Shown: in pieces, positions 5,054 to 12,347 of the stretch
Layout of the letters: each line of letters opens with the position of its first letter
Numbering within the stretch: the first letter of the stretch is position 1
NCBI GenBank assembly: GCA_016871995.1
Contig: VHBL01000006.1
Coordinates: forward strand, 1-32,000
Source: Nitrososphaerota archaeon
GTDB lineage: Archaea > Thermoproteota > Nitrososphaeria > Nitrososphaerales > UBA57
Length of the DNA: 32,000 bases
Direction: 5' to 3'
Notes under the pieces: generated by a model
What the model saw: the letters and a program-made list of their open reading frames with translations, nothing else
Told to the model about the DNA's origin: nothing
The model's database searches: none
Translations under genes and position numbers: made by a program

Positions 5054-7084
5054 TTGAAACTAAAGAGCTTCCGCGTCATGAACTACAGGAGCATCGAAGA
5101 CTCTGGAGATGTCCCAGTCAGTGATTATACCGCACTGGTAGGCAAGAACGAGAGCGGAAAGACTTCGTGTCTAAAGGCTATCCATAAGTTCAATCCCACT
5201 CAACCAGAACCTTTTGATGGATTGCGGGAGTTCCCTCGCAACCGTTTTCACGAATTTACGGGCACTGAGCCAGTAGTTTCATTGACCTTTGCCTTATCTG
5301 ATGAGGAGGTTAACAAGCTCGCAGCCATAAACCAGAGGTTCAAGGATTCCAATATTATCAGAATTACCAGAGATTACACAGGCGGCTACAGGTTCGAGTT
5401 TCCTGAAATCGATAACCCTCCGCATATAACGAAAGAGATCGTTGTTAACCTGATAGGCCAGATCAAGGATACTGGCTCAAACAGCTTAGGCGGGACTGCC
5501 GAAGGGAGACCGCTGCAAGAACAGCTTGTGGAAGTTCTGAACAAGATTATCGCTGGGCTGAGCGATACCTTCGATGCGAGGTCGCCTGAACAAAAGAAGA
5601 AGCTCTTGGAGCAGTTGCAGGACGTCCGTTCAATGATAGCATACTCCAACGCTGCTGTCGATACGACGCTAGTAGTAGATGTCATTGAGCAAGTTATACA
5701 AATCATAAATGGAGACACTCTGCCAGAGGTTCAGGCATATCTCAGGCAGGCGATGCCCAAGTTTATCTACTTCGACAATTATTCGATAATAAACAGCAGG
5801 ATTCACATACCATTTTACCTGCAGAGGCTGAAAGCTGGTGCCCTGACACCTGAAGATAAAACAACCAGAACGTTGTTCAGGCTTGTCAATCTTGATCCAG
5901 AGATTCTAATGAGACTCGGAAATGCGGAGGGGAAGAGCCCTGAACGACTGCAGAAGGATATTGACGAAAGAACGGTCAGGATGAGTAGGGCTAGCATGGT
6001 CATGAGCGGGGACCTTGCTGAAATCTGGGGGCAGAAGAGAAACAGGGTCGAATTCAGGCTGGACGGTGATTTTATCAGGCTCTGGATCGCGGATGCGGAA
6101 GGTTCTACCATCGAGCTTGAACAGAGAGGGAAAGGTTTCCAATGGTTTCTTTCGTTCTACGCAGTATTCAACGGAGAGTCCGAAGCAGGCCACAAAAACG
6201 CCATTCTGTTGCTCGATGAACCCGGTATGAACCTGCATGCTTCGAGTCAGGCCGCCTTGGTAAAGTTCCTTAGAAGGCTTTGCAAGAAGAACCAGTTGAT
6301 CTATACTACGCATTCGCCATTCATGATAGATATGGATGCGCTTGACACTGTAAGGACAGTTTCGGAGAGCAGAGGTACAGGAGCAACGATTTCTGCAGAT
6401 GCTTGGAGCAAGGACAAAGACTCTTTATTCCCGCTGCAGGCAGCGTTGTATTACTCTGTTTCCCAGCCGCTACTTGCCGCCCAGAACAACCTTATCGTGC
6501 AGGACATCACCGACTTCTGGTACGTGGCAGGCTTCTCTGATATGTTCAAGCAGCACAATCTGGCTCATCTCAGCGACAAAGTTGTCATAACGCCTGCAGG
6601 AGGGGCAAGCAACTGCGTCCTGCTCTCTGCCATGCTGTCGACTCAGAACCAGAACGTATGCGTGTTATTGAACTCTGATGCAGTTGGGGAGAAGGTCAAG
6701 GAGGATTTACTGAAGACCAAGATTTTGCAGCAGAACAAAATCATCTACGTAAACCAAGTTGGCGGGAAGAAAAGGGATATGGAGTTTGAAGATCTATTTC
6801 CAGAAGAATTCTACCTTAACTATGTCAATAGGGCCTATGCTAAAGAATTGGCAGACAGCCCCATGACTTCTCAAGTCCCCTTGCATGGTCCAACCATACG
6901 CAACAAGATCGAGCAGTACCTTACACTAAGAGGAGCGGAGTTTCACAGGAGCAGGCCAGCACGCATAATGTTAGAGGATTTACGTAGTATGAAGGCGAGC
7001 GATCTTCCAGAGGAATTTGTCAAGACTATGGAAAACCTGTTTACCATGATAAACGAAGCTCTGCTTCCGCCGCAGGGCGATTAA
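5054..7084 (+). CDS. OLD-family-like protein: N-terminal ABC/AAA15-type ATPase with a long helical insert, C-terminal Toprim-like domain
   Basis: 676 aa with a TTG start; the N-terminus MKLKSFRVMNYRSI matches the family. Walker A GKNESGKT (aa 30-37), signature-like RGKGFQWFLSF (358-368), Walker B ILLLDEP (384-390), H-loop TTHSPF. Toprim-like LIVQDITD (480-487), ITPAGGASN (512-520), VLLNSDAVGE (537-546). Confidence 0.7.
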   Translation: MKLKSFRVMNYRSIEDSGDVPVSDYTALVGKNESGKTSCLKAIHKFNPTQPEPFDGLREFPRNRFHEFTGTEPVVSLTFALSDEEVNKLAAINQRFKDSNIIRITRDYTGGYRFEFPEIDNPPHITKEIVVNLIGQIKDTGSNSLGGTAEGRPLQEQLVEVLNKIIAGLSDTFDARSPEQKKKLLEQLQDVRSMIAYSNAAVDTTLVVDVIEQVIQIINGDTLPEVQAYLRQAMPKFIYFDNYSIINSRIHIPFYLQRLKAGALTPEDKTTRTLFRLVNLDPEILMRLGNAEGKSPERLQKDIDERTVRMSRASMVMSGDLAEIWGQKRNRVEFRLDGDFIRLWIADAEGSTIELEQRGKGFQWFLSFYAVFNGESEAGHKNAILLLDEPGMNLHASSQAALVKFLRRLCKKNQLIYTTHSPFMIDMDALDTVRTVSESRGTGATISADAWSKDKDSLFPLQAALYYSVSQPLLAAQNNLIVQDITDFWYVAGFSDMFKQHNLAHLSDKVVITPAGGASNCVLLSAMLSTQNQNVCVLLNSDAVGEKVKEDLLKTKILQQNKIIYVNQVGGKKRDMEFEDLFPEEFYLNYVNRAYAKELADSPMTSQVPLHGPTIRNKIEQYLTLRGAEFHRSRPARIMLEDLRSMKASDLPEEFVKTMENLFTMINEALLPPQGD

Positions 7085-7284
7085 TGCATCAGGGTTTCTT
7101 CGGACTTCTCGTGCCTGTGCCTGTCCATGTGAATATAGCAGAAGGTTGCTCCGCATTCCCTGCAAGTCAGATAGTACCCATAACCCAGTCTCCTGCCGCA
7201 GTAGCCGCATGTGGGCCTTTTCTTCTGCTGTGTAGCTGGAGAGCTCAATTCTAACTCTTGCAGTTCTCCAGAGACTATTGACAT
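7081..7284 (-). CDS. Small zinc-ribbon protein (hypothetical)
   Basis: 67 aa with CGYCG...CRECG (two CxxC pairs) plus a His-rich tail HMDRHRH. An AT-rich TATA-like stretch lies about 20-28 nt upstream of the ATG. There is no homology support. Confidence 0.4.
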   Translation of the reverse strand: MSIVSGELQELELSSPATQQKKRPTCGYCGRRLGYGYYLTCRECGATFCYIHMDRHRHEKSEETLMH

Positions 7285-7537
7285 TAAATCGCAAAGTCAT
7301 AATAATTTTGCAATAATGTAATAGAAATTCCCTAAAAGGTTCATGCCTGCCTGTGCTTATTTGGCATATAGTACTAGTTATAGAGCTCATTTCCTTGTTT
7401 TTGTATATAAACTCAAAACACCTCATGCACTGCAAAATTTGCTATTGATCGTATTTAGACCCGAAAATTTGATAAGGTGAGAATTTTAGCTCAAAAAGTC
7501 CTATTTTTAGCGGTTGGGCTTTCCCCATTAAGCCAAG

Positions 7538-8924: not shown

Positions 8925-10271
8925 TTATGTGCCATATTTCGCTATAAGGGGCATTGCCTTTCTGGCAACTTCCTCTGCATCCCTGCCTAACACTACTATC
9001 ATCGGCTCTTTTCCCCAGTCCCCTTCATGATAAATAATATCGGGAACCCTGCCAATTTTTCTAATCGCTTGCTCCGCACCCCAAGCAGTGCTCCTCCCTT
9101 CCTGTATCTTGATTTCTTTTGGTTCCTTCCTCCTGTCATAAGACGAAACTACAAACTTTGATTTTGCATTTTTAATCAAGGATTCATCGTACCTGATATT
9201 TATCGCAGAGCGCACTTCAGCATCATGCTTCATAGCAACCAAGACCATTTTAGCGACATGGGAAGAAGCCCCAAACGCAGGAAAAGAAGAAGCGCGAGCC
9301 TTATTCCCAATTCTAACAATCCTGCCGGGAATTGCTGCGACATCTTCGATGCCCTTTGCTTCAGGAAGGGCCATGGCAATATTAGACTGCGATTCAGGTA
9401 TTAGACCAGCAAACTTGCTATTTGCTTCAATGATGCTAACAGCCCTCTGGATGCTGGACAGCACCTGCACCTTTTGAGCGTCAAGATACAACTCTCCAGT
9501 AGGATTTACAGGGCCATGACCCTTTCCTATTTGTAATCCGAGTTCTATAGCCCTAGTGACAAACTTCTTTGCAATCCTAACCGATTCCTCAACATCTTTC
9601 CCTTTAGCTAAGTTAGCGGTTATAGCAGCAGAAAAGCAGCAGCCCGTCCCATGCGTATTTTTGCCCTTAACCCATTTCTCCTCAAGCCTCAAAGTCTTAG
9701 TCTTTGTCACAAGAGTGTCAATAGAGCTATTACCAACAGGCATGTGTCCTCCTTTTATGACTACTGCTTTTGCGCCCATCTTCAGTATTCTTTTCCCTGC
9801 CTTCTCAGCATCCTCAAGGGTTTTGATCTTTAGGCCAGAAAGAACCTCCGCTTCTGGAATATTGGGAGTTACAACAGCAGCAAGTGGGATTATCTTTGCG
9901 ATGAGAGCATCTCTGGCTTCTGGCAATAGTAAAACAGAGCCGCCTTTTGAAACCATTACAGGATCAACCACAAGAAGAAAACCGTACCTTCTTACTTCTG
10001 AAGATACCGCATCAATAATGGTGCTAGTATGTAGCATCCCCGTCTTTGCAGCATCAACCCCAATATCATCTGCAACTACCCTTATCTGCGCCCGAATCAC
10101 TTCGGGACTAGCGTCCATGACCTTGGTAACATCTCTCGTGTTCTGAGCAGTTATTGCTGTAATTGCGCTCATTCCGTGCACCCCAAAAGCAGCGAAAGTC
10201 TTCAAATCAGCCTGTATCCCAGCCCCCCCTCCAGAATCAGAGCCTGCAATAGTCAGTGCTCTTTTGACCAT
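8925..10271 (-). CDS. thiDN: Bifunctional ThiD-ThiN: HMP/HMP-P kinase fused to ThiN-type thiamine-phosphate synthase
   Basis: 448 aa. N-terminus [20 protein letters not shown] is ThiD-like. The C-terminal ~180 aa ([23 protein letters not shown]...AINIRYDE) is a ThiN domain, paralogous to the ThiR C-terminus in this window. Confidence 0.9.
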
Positions 10272-10279
10272 CTGACCAC

Positions 10280-10864
10280 CTATAACTCAATCACGATATC
10301 CATGCTCTTCTGAAGTTTATCCAGCAGCCTTCTCTCACGCCTTGAAATGCCCGTCCCCATGTCGTCTGCAGGAAACTTCCCTCTGTAACCATTTGCTACA
10401 AACGTAGAGCATTTTGAGATGACCTTCAAGAGCCTTGCCAGCTCCCCTCTGTGCAGAAAAAGCGTAACATCATTTATGAAAAGTATCTTTGAGCGCTTCT
10501 CCATGAATTCGGAGAATAAGGCCCCAATGTTCTTTGCGTTAGCCAATGCTAGCTTCTCCACCTGCTCCTTTGAACCCCCATCAAGTCTTGGCGCATAGAC
10601 ATTCTTCGGTGCCATGTACTGGACAAGGTCAAGGTTCTTCAGATAGTAACGCAGTGTCTTTCCCATAGTATAAGAGCCGACATCTCTTTTCCCCGGGGCC
10701 ATGTCAATGACAGTGATCTTAGCTCCCTGCTTCGAGTTTATGGCTTCATCAAGGAGTTTAGCCAGTAGAGCAGTCTTGCCAGAGCCTAGGTCTCCAGTTA
10801 TCAGGACTTTCTTGCCCAAGCAGTCAGCAAATCTATACTCCGAGCTTAATCCCTCTTTTTGCAA
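10280..10864 (-). CDS. Uncharacterised P-loop NTPase (SIMIBI/GPN-like layout without a GPN motif)
   Basis: 194 aa. Walker A GDLGSGKT (nt 10772..10795), ITVIDMAPG, Walker-B-like ILFINDVTLF. Overlaps the thiW 3' end by 32 nt, and its stop is 8 nt from the thiDN start. Confidence 0.7.
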   Translation of the reverse strand: MQKEGLSSEYRFADCLGKKVLITGDLGSGKTALLAKLLDEAINSKQGAKITVIDMAPGKRDVGSYTMGKTLRYYLKNLDLVQYMAPKNVYAPRLDGGSKEQVEKLALANAKNIGALFSEFMEKRSKILFINDVTLFLHRGELARLLKVISKCSTFVANGYRGKFPADDMGTGISRRERRLLDKLQKSMDIVIEL

Positions 10865-11357
10865 GGCCTGTTACCACCAAAAATCCAAGTATCGTGCCAG
10901 GAATGCTGCTGGCCCAGAAGCTCAGCAGGAATGCCATCCACTGTTCGCTGAAACCAAACACTGCTGGTAATGGTCGAGTCCCTGCAGCAGGTGCTACTAT
11001 GAATGCGCTGATCAATGCTCCGAGCCCCGTTCCAATTGGCTCCAGCAAGCCTACAAGGGGGCTCTTCTTCAAGTATTTGTATGCAATACCAACAAGCAGA
11101 ACTCCTGGCAACCCTCCAGGTATGGCAAATATCGAGCCCGTGCCCATGCCTATCCTTATCAAGCCTATCGTCAGCGCGACTCCTCCTCCCATCCATGGCC
11201 CCAACATTATCCCCGTTATGATATTGATCATGTGCTGGTAAGGTAAGACCCTTACTGGCCCTACTGGTATCGAGCCAGGGTAAATCGAGAGTGCTACACC
11301 TAAAGCTATCAATAAAGCTGCCAGTGCTATGTAGCGGGAAGTTATCATTTGGAGCAC
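10833..11357 (-). CDS. thiW: ThiW-like membrane protein (predicted thiazole-moiety transporter, ECF S-component-like)
   Basis: 174 aa, multi-TM. Pattern P.QH.IN...G..LGPW, IR.G.GTGS.FA.PGG and EPIGTG..GA matches my recollection of the ThiW family. The track start at 11357 is GTG; the ATG at 11348 is more likely. Confidence 0.65.
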   Translation of the reverse strand: MLQMITSRYIALAALLIALGVALSIYPGSIPVGPVRVLPYQHMINIITGIMLGPWMGGGVALTIGLIRIGMGTGSIFAIPGGLPGVLLVGIAYKYLKKSPLVGLLEPIGTGLGALISAFIVAPAAGTRPLPAVFGFSEQWMAFLLSFWASSIPGTILGFLVVTGLAKRGIKLGV

Positions 11358-11367
11358 AGGTTTTTGT

Positions 11368-11384
11368 AATGCTTATAAAGCATT
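11368..11384. promoter_or_regulatory. Inverted repeat AATGCTT-ATA-AAGCATT embedding a TATA-like core; candidate shared bidirectional promoter/operator for thiW and thiR
   Basis: Perfect 7-bp arms with a 3-bp spacer. The centre (11376) lies 27 nt from the thiR ATG (11403) and 28 nt from the thiW ATG (11348). Confidence 0.5.
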
Positions 11385-11402: not shown

Positions 11403-12347
11403 ATGCATCCTCCATGCGAGCTCATGACCGAAACCTTTCTTCCTGCTATGAGAGGACTCGTAGCACACGAACTGGCAAAGAAGGGCTTTTCGCAGTCCAA
11501 AATTTCAAAACTTTTAGGAGTTACACAGCCCGCAGTGAACCAGTATCTTGCAAAGCCCCAGGGTTTCTATTCCCAGAAGGTTTCAGTTCTGGGAATAGGC
11601 GAAGCAGAATCTGCAAGGTACGCATCCCTGCTTGGAGAGGATTTAGTGACAAATCAGGTCGCAGCCGTGCATACACTCTATACGGTTTGGAGGCAGCTTC
11701 TGCTGGAAGGGAAGCTCTCTGATCCAAGCAGAATTTTAGATGGACGGCCCCTGTGCGACATCTGGACACCTATGATGAATCCTGCTACGACGGGAGATGA
11801 GAGGGTAGCGATAATAGAAGAGGTAAAGAAAGCGGTAAGGATGATAGAGGGTTCAACTACCTTTCCCAGCATAATGCCCGAAGTCTCCGTGAACCTTGTA
11901 ATGTCTACCAGATCGCCGAAGGGCGAAGCCGATGTCGCTGCTATGCCAGGAAGGATAGTTAACGTAAAAGGCAGGGCCAGGGGCCTTCTGGCACCGGAAT
12001 TCGGGGTTTCGCATCATATGGCAAGAGTACTGCTTATTTTACATTCAAAGTTTCCCGCAATAATATCTGCGATGAACATACGCTATGATCAGTACGTTGC
12101 GAAGGTTCTGAAGCAAAACAAGATTGAATGCGTGATGACCGATCCCTCAGGCAGGGAGGGCTCAGATCCTGTATTGCATTCAATCCAGCAGCTCCTTCCT
12201 AAAATCAAGCAGCAACCTAAGGCAGTAATCGATGCAGGGGGGCAGGGAATAGAGCCGATAACATACATCTTCGGGGAAAGCGCATTGGATGTAGCCACGA
12301 GTGCGATAGCGATATCGCGACAGTATTCGACGCTGAGCACGAATTAA
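11403..12347 (+). CDS. thiR: ThiR-type regulator: N-terminal HTH fused to a ThiN-like ligand-binding domain
   Basis: 314 aa. HTH segment SQSKISKLLGVTQPAVNQYL. C-terminal AAMPGRIVNVKGRARG..FGVSHHMARVLL...AMNIRYDQ parallels the ThiN half of ThiDN. Confidence 0.8.
   Translation: MHPPCELMTETFLPAMRGLVAHELAKKGFSQSKISKLLGVTQPAVNQYLAKPQGFYSQKVSVLGIGEAESARYASLLGEDLVTNQVAAVHTLYTVWRQLLLEGKLSDPSRILDGRPLCDIWTPMMNPATTGDERVAIIEEVKKAVRMIEGSTTFPSIMPEVSVNLVMSTRSPKGEADVAAMPGRIVNVKGRARGLLAPEFGVSHHMARVLLILHSKFPAIISAMNIRYDQYVAKVLKQNKIECVMTDPSGREGSDPVLHSIQQLLPKIKQQPKAVIDAGGQGIEPITYIFGESALDVATSAIAISRQYSTLSTN

Follow-up and report, generated by a model that had tools for sequence, protein, structure and literature searches.

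X, as it is called here, is a P-loop nucleoside triphosphatase (NTPase) of 194 amino acids (aa) from an archaeal thiamine-salvage operon, and it is probably a non-orthologous, ATP-dependent hydroxyethylthiazole (HET) kinase that replaces ThiM. This proposal is derived from genomic context. The gene is located at 10280-10864 on the minus strand of contig VHBL01000006.1 (assembly GCA_016871995.1, Nitrososphaerota archaeon), of which positions 1 to 32,000 of the forward strand (the window) were analysed. It lies between thiW, which encodes a predicted HET importer, and thiDN. The open reading frame (ORF) call, homologues, an AlphaFold2 model and synteny underlie its description as a member of an uncurated P-loop family. 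The arrangement thiW-X-thiDN is far beyond chance and recurs, rearranged and fused, in about 150 independent loci. X sometimes appears tethered to the transporter, in the form of ThiW~X or EcfT~X fusions.

In the window, all three genes of the operon are encoded on the minus strand. ThiW (10833-11357) is an S component of the energy-coupling factor (ECF) type, matching PF09512 (5.7e-36) and TIGR02359 (1.6e-38, 132 bits with a cutoff of 84). ThiDN (8925-10271) consists of a hydroxymethylpyrimidine (HMP)/HMP phosphate (HMP-P) kinase fused to a ThiN thiamine-phosphate synthase, with matches to PF08543 (2.4e-95), PF10120 (2.4e-65) and NF006346 (580 bits with a cutoff of 528). X initiates at a TTG codon, 32 nucleotides (nt) within the 3' end of thiW, and its stop codon TAG at 10280-10282 is followed after 8 nt by the ATG of thiDN at 10271. 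The overlap of thiW and X is real, because no alternative in-frame start exists upstream of F12 and D14 of X, two residues conserved in distant homologues. For thiW itself, the ATG at 11348 is more likely to be the true start than the GTG at 11357 of the mechanical ORF call, since the encoded MITSR is conserved in two relatives (loci L010 and L011). The coordinates and the Pfam and TIGR matches agree with an earlier note on this DNA, which had described a translationally coupled operon with this overlap and gap. The same note had seen no ThiM at the locus, and PF02110 is indeed absent from the 32-kb window. EcfT is likewise not encoded there.

X was found in 305 genomes in a scan with one genome per GTDB species, among them the complete genomes CP130488.1, CP070659.1, CP070640.1 and CP070828.1, and neighbours were counted in 80 of these loci. 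ThiW is encoded in 72 of the 80, immediately upstream of X on the same strand in 62 and downstream of it in 8. ThiW is missing from eight loci, and in four of these X is no more than 600 nt from a contig end. ThiD or ThiDN is present in 55 loci, the HMP permease CytX in 27, ThiR in 16, ThiC in 13 and ThiM in none. Gene orders include thiW-X-thiDN, cytX-thiDN-thiW-X, thiDN-X-thiW, thiW-X-thiC-thiDN and thiW-X alone, and the reading frames of thiW and X usually overlap. The loci are labelled as Nitrososphaeria/"Thaumarchaeota", Bathyarchaeia, Methanomethylicia (including the complete genome CP130488.1), Brockarchaeota and Methanocellales, as well as the Korarchaeota-labelled Thermoproteota metagenome-assembled genomes (MAGs) Kor1 and Kor2, Thermoproteales, Thermofilaceae and Calditenuaceae. 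X also occurs in bacteria, on further contigs from Dehalococcoidia and others. The earlier note had asked about conserved synteny; linkage to thiW is kept, with thiW-X-thiDN among the recurrent orders.

These operons encode CytX or ThiC, ThiD, ThiN and ThiW, and the phosphorylation of thiazole is the one step without an assigned gene. Compared with the "HET auxotroph" signature ThiC-ThiD-ThiE-ThiM (PMC6593275), X takes the place of ThiM and ThiN the place of ThiE. A metagenome scan with a four-sequence ThiW alignment as the query yielded 80 loci. X is encoded immediately downstream of thiW in 66 of them, and none of these 66 contains ThiM. Nine loci lack X although 500 nt or more are available downstream of thiW, and seven of the nine carry ThiM, in the order riboswitch-thiC-thiW-cytX-thiM-thiE-thiL (ThiM matching PF02110 at 3e-85). 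Among the loci with at least 500 nt downstream of thiW, ThiM is present/absent in 0/51 with X and in 7/2 without X. In the complete set of 174 loci (1.52 Mb), ThiM is confined to those without X, namely to the seven thiW loci, which double as a positive control for the ThiM search. Weak tblastn matches of the ThiM queries from E. coli and L163 in L046, L060, L061, L066, L069 and L087 fall on ThiD and represent a cross-match within the ribokinase fold. The co-occurrence with thiW and the anti-correlation with thiM that the earlier note had proposed to look for were both recovered, with no ThiM in the roughly 150 X loci, but for local loci only.

ThiM and X share their slot in the operon, beside thiW, cytX, thiC, a ThiD-type kinase and a thiamine-phosphate synthase. 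They also share control by thiamine pyrophosphate (TPP) riboswitches and, as proposed, the reaction itself. Among related thiW operons, those that carry ThiM are precisely those that lack X. The proteins themselves differ, as ThiM has a ribokinase fold (PF02110), whereas X is a RecA-like P-loop protein of 190 aa with no relation to it in sequence or fold. The accompanying synthase also differs in the loci seen, being of the ThiN type beside X and ThiE beside ThiM.

A different explanation is that X is an accessory NTPase of the transporter, bound to ThiW or EcfT, which energises, gates, assembles or regulates the thiazole importer. It is judged unlikely. ThiW is the most constant neighbour of X, with the overlapping frames described above, and in-frame fusions are known of both transporter components. 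ThiW~X is represented by P0096 (387 aa) and an ORF of L045, and in the EcfT~X protein P0230 (L091) X is joined to the C-terminus of a CbiQ/EcfT domain. Both kinds of fusion show that X is physically close to the transporter, at its cytoplasmic face. Moreover, no EcfAA'T module is encoded near most X loci, so ThiW could be without a conventional energiser, and the top structural match of X, FlaH, binds ATP as an accessory of a membrane machine. On the other hand, X is retained together with a complete EcfAA'T in the same operon or divergon. The operon of L091 has the order riboswitch-thiW-ecfAA'(two ABC_tran domains)-ecfT~X-thiDN. In the Methanocellales loci L067, L087 and L088, thiR-ecfT-ecfA'-ecfA is divergent from thiW-X-cytX-thiDN, and in the metagenome locus L175 from thiW-X. 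As X is kept beside complete EcfAA'T modules, it is no substitute for the ABC ATPases. X also occurs apart from thiW: L073 has riboswitch-X-thiDN without thiW, and in L130 thiDN-X is separate from riboswitch-thiW. If X were an accessory NTPase, these salvage operons would be complete but for a thiazole kinase, and none of the roughly 150 loci shows a thiW-X-thiM operon.

Like EcfA and EcfA', X is a P-loop protein of the cytoplasm whose gene accompanies that of an S component, and in one case it is fused to EcfT. It differs from them in lacking both an ABC_tran domain and the ABC signature, and it accompanies genuine EcfAA' (L087, L091) instead of replacing it. Assignment to the ATP-binding cassette (ABC) ATPases was rejected, with PF00005 not among the families listed for X and LSGGQ absent from its sequence; known features of coupling to a T component are also lacking. 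The earlier note had weighed a thiazole kinase against an energiser and leaned towards the latter. That leaning did not hold, as the kinase is favoured by the co-existence with EcfAA'T, by L073 and by the local exclusivity of ThiM. The energiser is weakened yet retains weight, because the fusions place X close to the transporter.

A combination of both roles is unlikely. X would dock onto ThiW or EcfT from the cytoplasmic side and phosphorylate thiazole as it emerges, which would amount to a two-protein uptake system by vectorial phosphorylation, made up of an ECF-type S component and a non-ABC RecA-like kinase. Such a system could work without EcfAA'T, and the fusions would be its single-chain forms. 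In a more radical variant, ATP turnover by X itself would gate or drive the S component.

Pairs of a transporter and a trapping kinase are exemplified by PnuC-NadR, PnuT-thiamine pyrophosphokinase and thiW-thiM. As in thiW-X, a facilitator or S component is encoded by the kinase of its cargo and co-regulated by the end product. We know of no covalent transporter~kinase fusion comparable to ThiW~X or EcfT~X for the PnuC-NadR, PnuT or thiW-thiM pairs.

Two unrelated control systems place X firmly in the thiamine regulon, namely TPP riboswitches upstream in relatives and ThiR, which is encoded in the window. ThiR (11403-12347, plus strand) is divergent from the operon and consists of an N-terminal helix-turn-helix (HTH) region and a C-terminal ThiN-like effector domain. 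The effector domain matches PF10120 at 1e-41 (aa 140-301), and HTH matches at aa 18-55 are weak (E about 0.01). The intergenic region of about 50 bp between thiW and thiR contains a perfect 17-nt palindrome, AATGCTTATAAAGCATT, at 11368-11384, overlapping a TATA-like box. As read from the sequence, this palindrome is likely a candidate ThiR operator combined with a shared promoter, which would autoregulate thiR and control the operon. Its arms are identical in L010 and differ by one arm base in L011, both close relatives, and in the more distant L013 the symmetry is kept with changed arms. The divergent ThiR is conserved in the same three loci.

TPP riboswitches were identified with RF00059 (gathering score 54.3). 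In both bacteria and archaea, they directly precede X operons, with scores of 55-69 bits. Matches above the gathering score were obtained in L001, L007, L008, L009, L018, L033, L045, L047, L049, L052, L073, L091, L096, L104, L147, L156 and L160. Bacterial X operons preceded by a riboswitch are those of L007, L008, L009 and L091, and several metagenome loci are organised likewise. In Methanomethylicia, the riboswitches upstream of thiW-X are at 7299-7412 in L049, 7313-7427 in L052, 1477-1591 in L033, 7354-7472 in L018 and 5369-5487 in L001. In Bathyarchaeia, upstream of thiW-X or X-thiDN, they are at 7422-7533 in L047, 6527-6629 in L045 and 6225-6333 in L073. To our knowledge, archaeal TPP riboswitches have been thought to be confined to Thermoplasmatales, with ThiR being used elsewhere. 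The matches above the gathering threshold include archaea of the Thaumarchaeota, Aigarchaeota, Crenarchaeota and Korarchaeota (TACK) group, among them the complete genome CP130488.1. In L045, the first gene (6623-7375) of the riboswitch operon DUF2284-thiW~X-thiC encodes a DUF2284 predicted metal-binding protein, which may be a further thiamine-related gene. The earlier note had linked X to thiamine metabolism from its neighbours in the window, and the frequency of ThiW, the riboswitches and the divergent ThiR bear this out.

A very improbable alternative is that X has no dedicated thiamine role and is a generic P-loop protein inherited along with thiW. Distant members outside thiamine loci (L002, L092, L012, L016 and L081) and inconsistent automatic annotations point in this direction. 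Against it, the linkage outlasts rearrangements, includes two kinds of fusion, comes under control of both ThiR and TPP riboswitches, and extends over both domains of life.

A word search returned 93 close homologues of X, and 357 of 1.84 billion cluster representatives were related at E<=1e-3 in an exhaustive profile search. Nearly all family members have 170-210 aa. Their automatic labels disagree (GTP-binding, FlaH, SAR1, EcfA2), and the database entry for a protein 100% identical to X reads "GTP-binding protein [Thaumarchaeota archaeon]". No curated Pfam or NCBIfam family accommodates X, and all NCBIfam matches are far under their cutoffs. The sole Pfam match above threshold is cobW (PF02492, 22.8 bits with a cutoff of 20.7), which covers aa 20-53 and profile positions 3-33 of 180. 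When 46 aligned members were scanned, scattered P-loop matches were obtained, with DUF87 in 16, cobW in 5 and no consistent family.

The nucleotide-binding motifs of X are well defined, and GDLGSGKT, VIDMAP and ILFINDVTLF, to which the earlier note had pointed, are present. The Walker A motif or P-loop GDLGSGKT (aa 24-31) is encoded at 10772-10795 on the minus strand. In the family alignment T31 is invariant, and G24, G29 and K30 reach a conservation of at least 90%. VIDMAP (aa 52-57, 10694-10711, minus strand) lies at the end of strand 2 and contains the invariant P57, as well as D54, which falls on the first catalytic Glu in the FEESP motif of KaiC. The Walker B motif ILFIND (aa 127-132, 10469-10486, minus strand) is located within ILFINDVTLF (aa 127-136), with N131 and D132 at least 90% conserved. 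A family-specific C-terminal block, ANGYRG...D..GTGISRRERR (aa 157-179, 10328-10396, minus strand), includes the invariant E177 and is a candidate substrate- or phosphate-binding region. In total, T31, P57, R93, N109 and E177 are invariant in the alignment, and GxxGxGKT, D54 in VIDMAP, N131/D132 and ANGY.G...D..GTG.S.RER are nearly invariant. Many invariant polar, aromatic and Gly residues are found outside the nucleotide motifs.

The AlphaFold2 model of X is confident, with a predicted local distance difference test score (pLDDT) of 90.2 and a predicted template modelling score (pTM) of 0.88. The top Foldseek matches in the PDB are all RecA-like P-loop proteins of the additional strand catalytic glutamate (ASCE) class, comprising FlaH, Rho, F1 beta, KaiC, TK1-type thymidine kinases and CobA. 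FlaH (4yds) is the best match with an E of 1.6e-5, and CobA has the highest TM-scores (0.56-0.57). Structural similarity, Walker A, Walker B and the acidic D54 after strand 2 place X in this RecA-like ASCE class. A placement in a family of unrelated known function, which the earlier note had held open as an outcome of structure searches, did not emerge. The same note had found the motifs more similar to GPN/SIMIBI-type NTPases and had taken this as favouring an energiser, a view that the model contradicts. No SIMIBI protein is among the best 50 Foldseek matches, GPN, DxxG and NKxD motifs are absent, and Walker B reads ILFINDVT. NF010340, which we take to be the model for archaeal GPN-type GTPases, matches X with an E of only 0.03 (aa 19-81). 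A ribokinase-like fold was discarded as well, as the model matches RecA-like P-loop proteins instead. With TK1, CobA and the autokinase KaiC among its neighbours, the modelled fold is compatible with a kinase.

Sequence and profile searches of the PDB gave matches at the level of the P-loop only, the best being KaiC with an E of 0.0027. The KaiC alignment sets the P-loop of X over that of KaiC and VIDMAP over FEESP, so that D54 corresponds to the first catalytic Glu and the second is absent. KaiC, FlaH (ArlH) and related RecA-like ASCE proteins form the best structural class for X, and KaiC transfers phosphate to hydroxyl groups. However, the similarity spans about 60 residues only, the Glu-Glu pair of KaiC is a single Asp in X, and PF06745 stays under threshold. 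X is a single domain of 190 aa with no evidence of hexamers or protein substrates. Membership in the KaiC/FlaH family proper was rejected, as NF004723 gives an E of 0.064 (12.8 bits with a cutoff of 194) and PF06745 occurs in one of the 46 members (1.3e-4). TK1 and CobA/BtuR are, like X, small RecA-like P-loop enzymes of similar size with small-molecule substrates. They show no profile homology to X beyond the P-loop, and X lacks the zinc/lasso domain.

Other assignments were tried and dismissed. For ThiM, neither PF02110 nor NF006830 is matched at E<=1 among the best 25 of 30 matched families, and the same approach finds the ThiM of L163 at 3e-85. For a G3E GTPase (CobW/HypB/UreG), the PF02492 match covers the P-loop part only, occurs in 5 of 46 members and is not accompanied by a conserved NKxD. 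In hhalign comparisons, X had a probability of 0.3% with the TK1-type thymidine kinase Tdk of E. coli, and its 194 aa contain no Cys4 cluster. With the E. coli adenosyltransferase BtuR (CobA), the probability was 1.7%, and only aa 17-55 were aligned. A role of X as an analogue of ThiD, ThiN or ThiL was rejected, as X occurs together with ThiD, with ThiN and, in one locus (L081), with an ORF that by eye is ThiL-like (AIRS-type).

In the mechanism that we infer for X, which covers its substrate, the phosphotransfer chemistry, the roles of its residues and metabolic trapping, ThiW would admit HET (or carboxy-HET) into the cell. X would then use ATP to phosphorylate the hydroxyl group of HET, yielding HET phosphate (HET-P), which would be trapped in the cell. 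ATP is proposed as the nucleotide because no guanine-specificity motif is present. K30/T31 and D132 would bind Mg-ATP, D54 would be the probable carboxylate base, and R93 together with the RERR helix would bind phosphate. A catalytic role of D54 is suggested by its alignment and conservation. The ThiN domain of ThiDN would take HET-P as its thiazole substrate. HMP pyrophosphate (HMP-PP) would be supplied by ThiD, from HMP that is imported by CytX or made by ThiC. ThiN would join HET-P and HMP-PP to thiamine phosphate, and thiamine phosphates would shut the operon off, via ThiR here and via TPP riboswitches in many relatives.

Within the thiamine pathway, X could also have another substrate or another chemistry. 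It might be a kinase for thiamine or other cargo of ThiW, or perform a CobA-like adenylyl or adenosyl transfer onto thiazole. This is considered quite unlikely. The thiamine regulation and linkage of X are solid in this case too, and the riboswitch-thiW-X two-gene units (L049, L052, L033, L018) leave the cargo unspecified. CobA, the best geometric match, is a transferase that does not simply phosphorylate. The substrate of ThiW is itself a prediction (PMC6593275). Conversely, X goes with ThiDN, CytX and ThiC, which are genes of precursor salvage that a thiamine kinase would not need. ThiD, ThiN and the ThiL-like ORF are not replaced by X, since they co-occur with it. Sister thiW operons hold ThiM specifically in the slot of X, and the low hhalign probability with BtuR/CobA speaks against the transferase.

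Several observations weigh against X being a HET kinase. The ThiW substrate on which the assignment depends is a genomic prediction and not an experimental result (PMC6593275). The seven ThiM loci belong to a single clade and correspond to about one independent evolutionary event, because their ThiM proteins are 80-100% identical. The absence of ThiM covers only 4-8 kb around X and is thus local, not genome-wide. The fusions to ThiW and EcfT fit a transporter-associated ATPase and a tethered trapping kinase equally well. TM-scores of the structural matches reach only 0.45-0.57, and the top Foldseek match, FlaH, is an accessory protein of a membrane complex. Among RecA-like proteins, oligomeric ATPases are commoner than small-molecule kinases. 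In addition, the bacterial fusion P0225 (L092, 1597-3234) joins an X domain (aa 3-176) to a full MnmA-type tRNA 2-thiouridylase. In this sulfur/selenium-trafficking locus, it adjoins TusA, YeeE-like, Se/S-carrier and AIRS-family genes. Neither a riboswitch nor any thiamine gene is present there, which suggests a different role for distant members of the family. The distant bacterial L002 is also outside a thiamine context, and X stands alone in L012 and L016, one from a Thermoproteota MAG and one from a Methanomethyliaceae MAG. Together with L081, these three form the stand-alone X genes. Distant members can evidently leave the thiamine context, which counts mildly against a single fixed function.

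The two loci L012 and L016 lack thiW upstream of X. A gap of 250-800 nt precedes X and contains no ORF of at least 70 aa, apart from a spurious-looking ORF of 78 aa in L012. A short gene of the phage-integrase family is located just 3' of X in L012 (8650-9249), L016 (8663-9259) and L001 (7697-8269), all from Methanomethylicia/Thermoproteota. In L035 (Bathyarchaeia), a TenA-like thiaminase II and a ThiT-like S component (1223-1897, 2164-2682), recognised by eye, adjoin thiDN-X and would make this locus a further X-associated variant of salvage. In 10-15 loci of Bathyarchaeia (L003, L021, L027, L043 and related ones), an opposite-strand block of FdhD-like, ATP-grasp (RimK-like), metallophosphatase and coiled-coil genes is located downstream of X, which probably reflects lineage synteny and not a functional link.

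The neighbours of the operon in the window are housekeeping genes, including those for CdvA, an electron transfer flavoprotein (ETF) and the CCA-adding enzyme. At a distance of 3 kb from the operon, 5054-7084 on the plus strand encodes a 676-aa AAA_15/AAA_21 ATPase with an OLD/AbiEii-like N-terminal architecture, possibly a defence gene.

No description of the X family was found in the literature; it may have been mentioned earlier in work on the ThiR regulon or in curated subsystems. In our assessment, the reaction and the logic of salvage are known, the protein family is undescribed, and its transporter fusions are unusual.

If X is a HET kinase, it fills the thiazole-kinase gap in thiamine reconstructions of large uncultured groups of archaea, namely Bathyarchaeia, non-ammonia-oxidising Nitrososphaeria, Methanomethylicia, Korarchaeota-labelled MAGs, Brockarchaeota and some Methanocellales, and of some Dehalococcoidia. 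Such genomes would otherwise be counted as incapable of using exogenous thiazole. The assignment would alter which vitamin auxotrophies and cross-feeding relations are predicted in sediments and groundwater. A family of about 190 aa without a Pfam model would join the short list of RecA-fold small-molecule kinases, and proteins now annotated as GTP-binding, FlaH, SAR1 or EcfA2 would receive a name. The fusions to ThiW and EcfT make a direct coupling of transporter and kinase testable.

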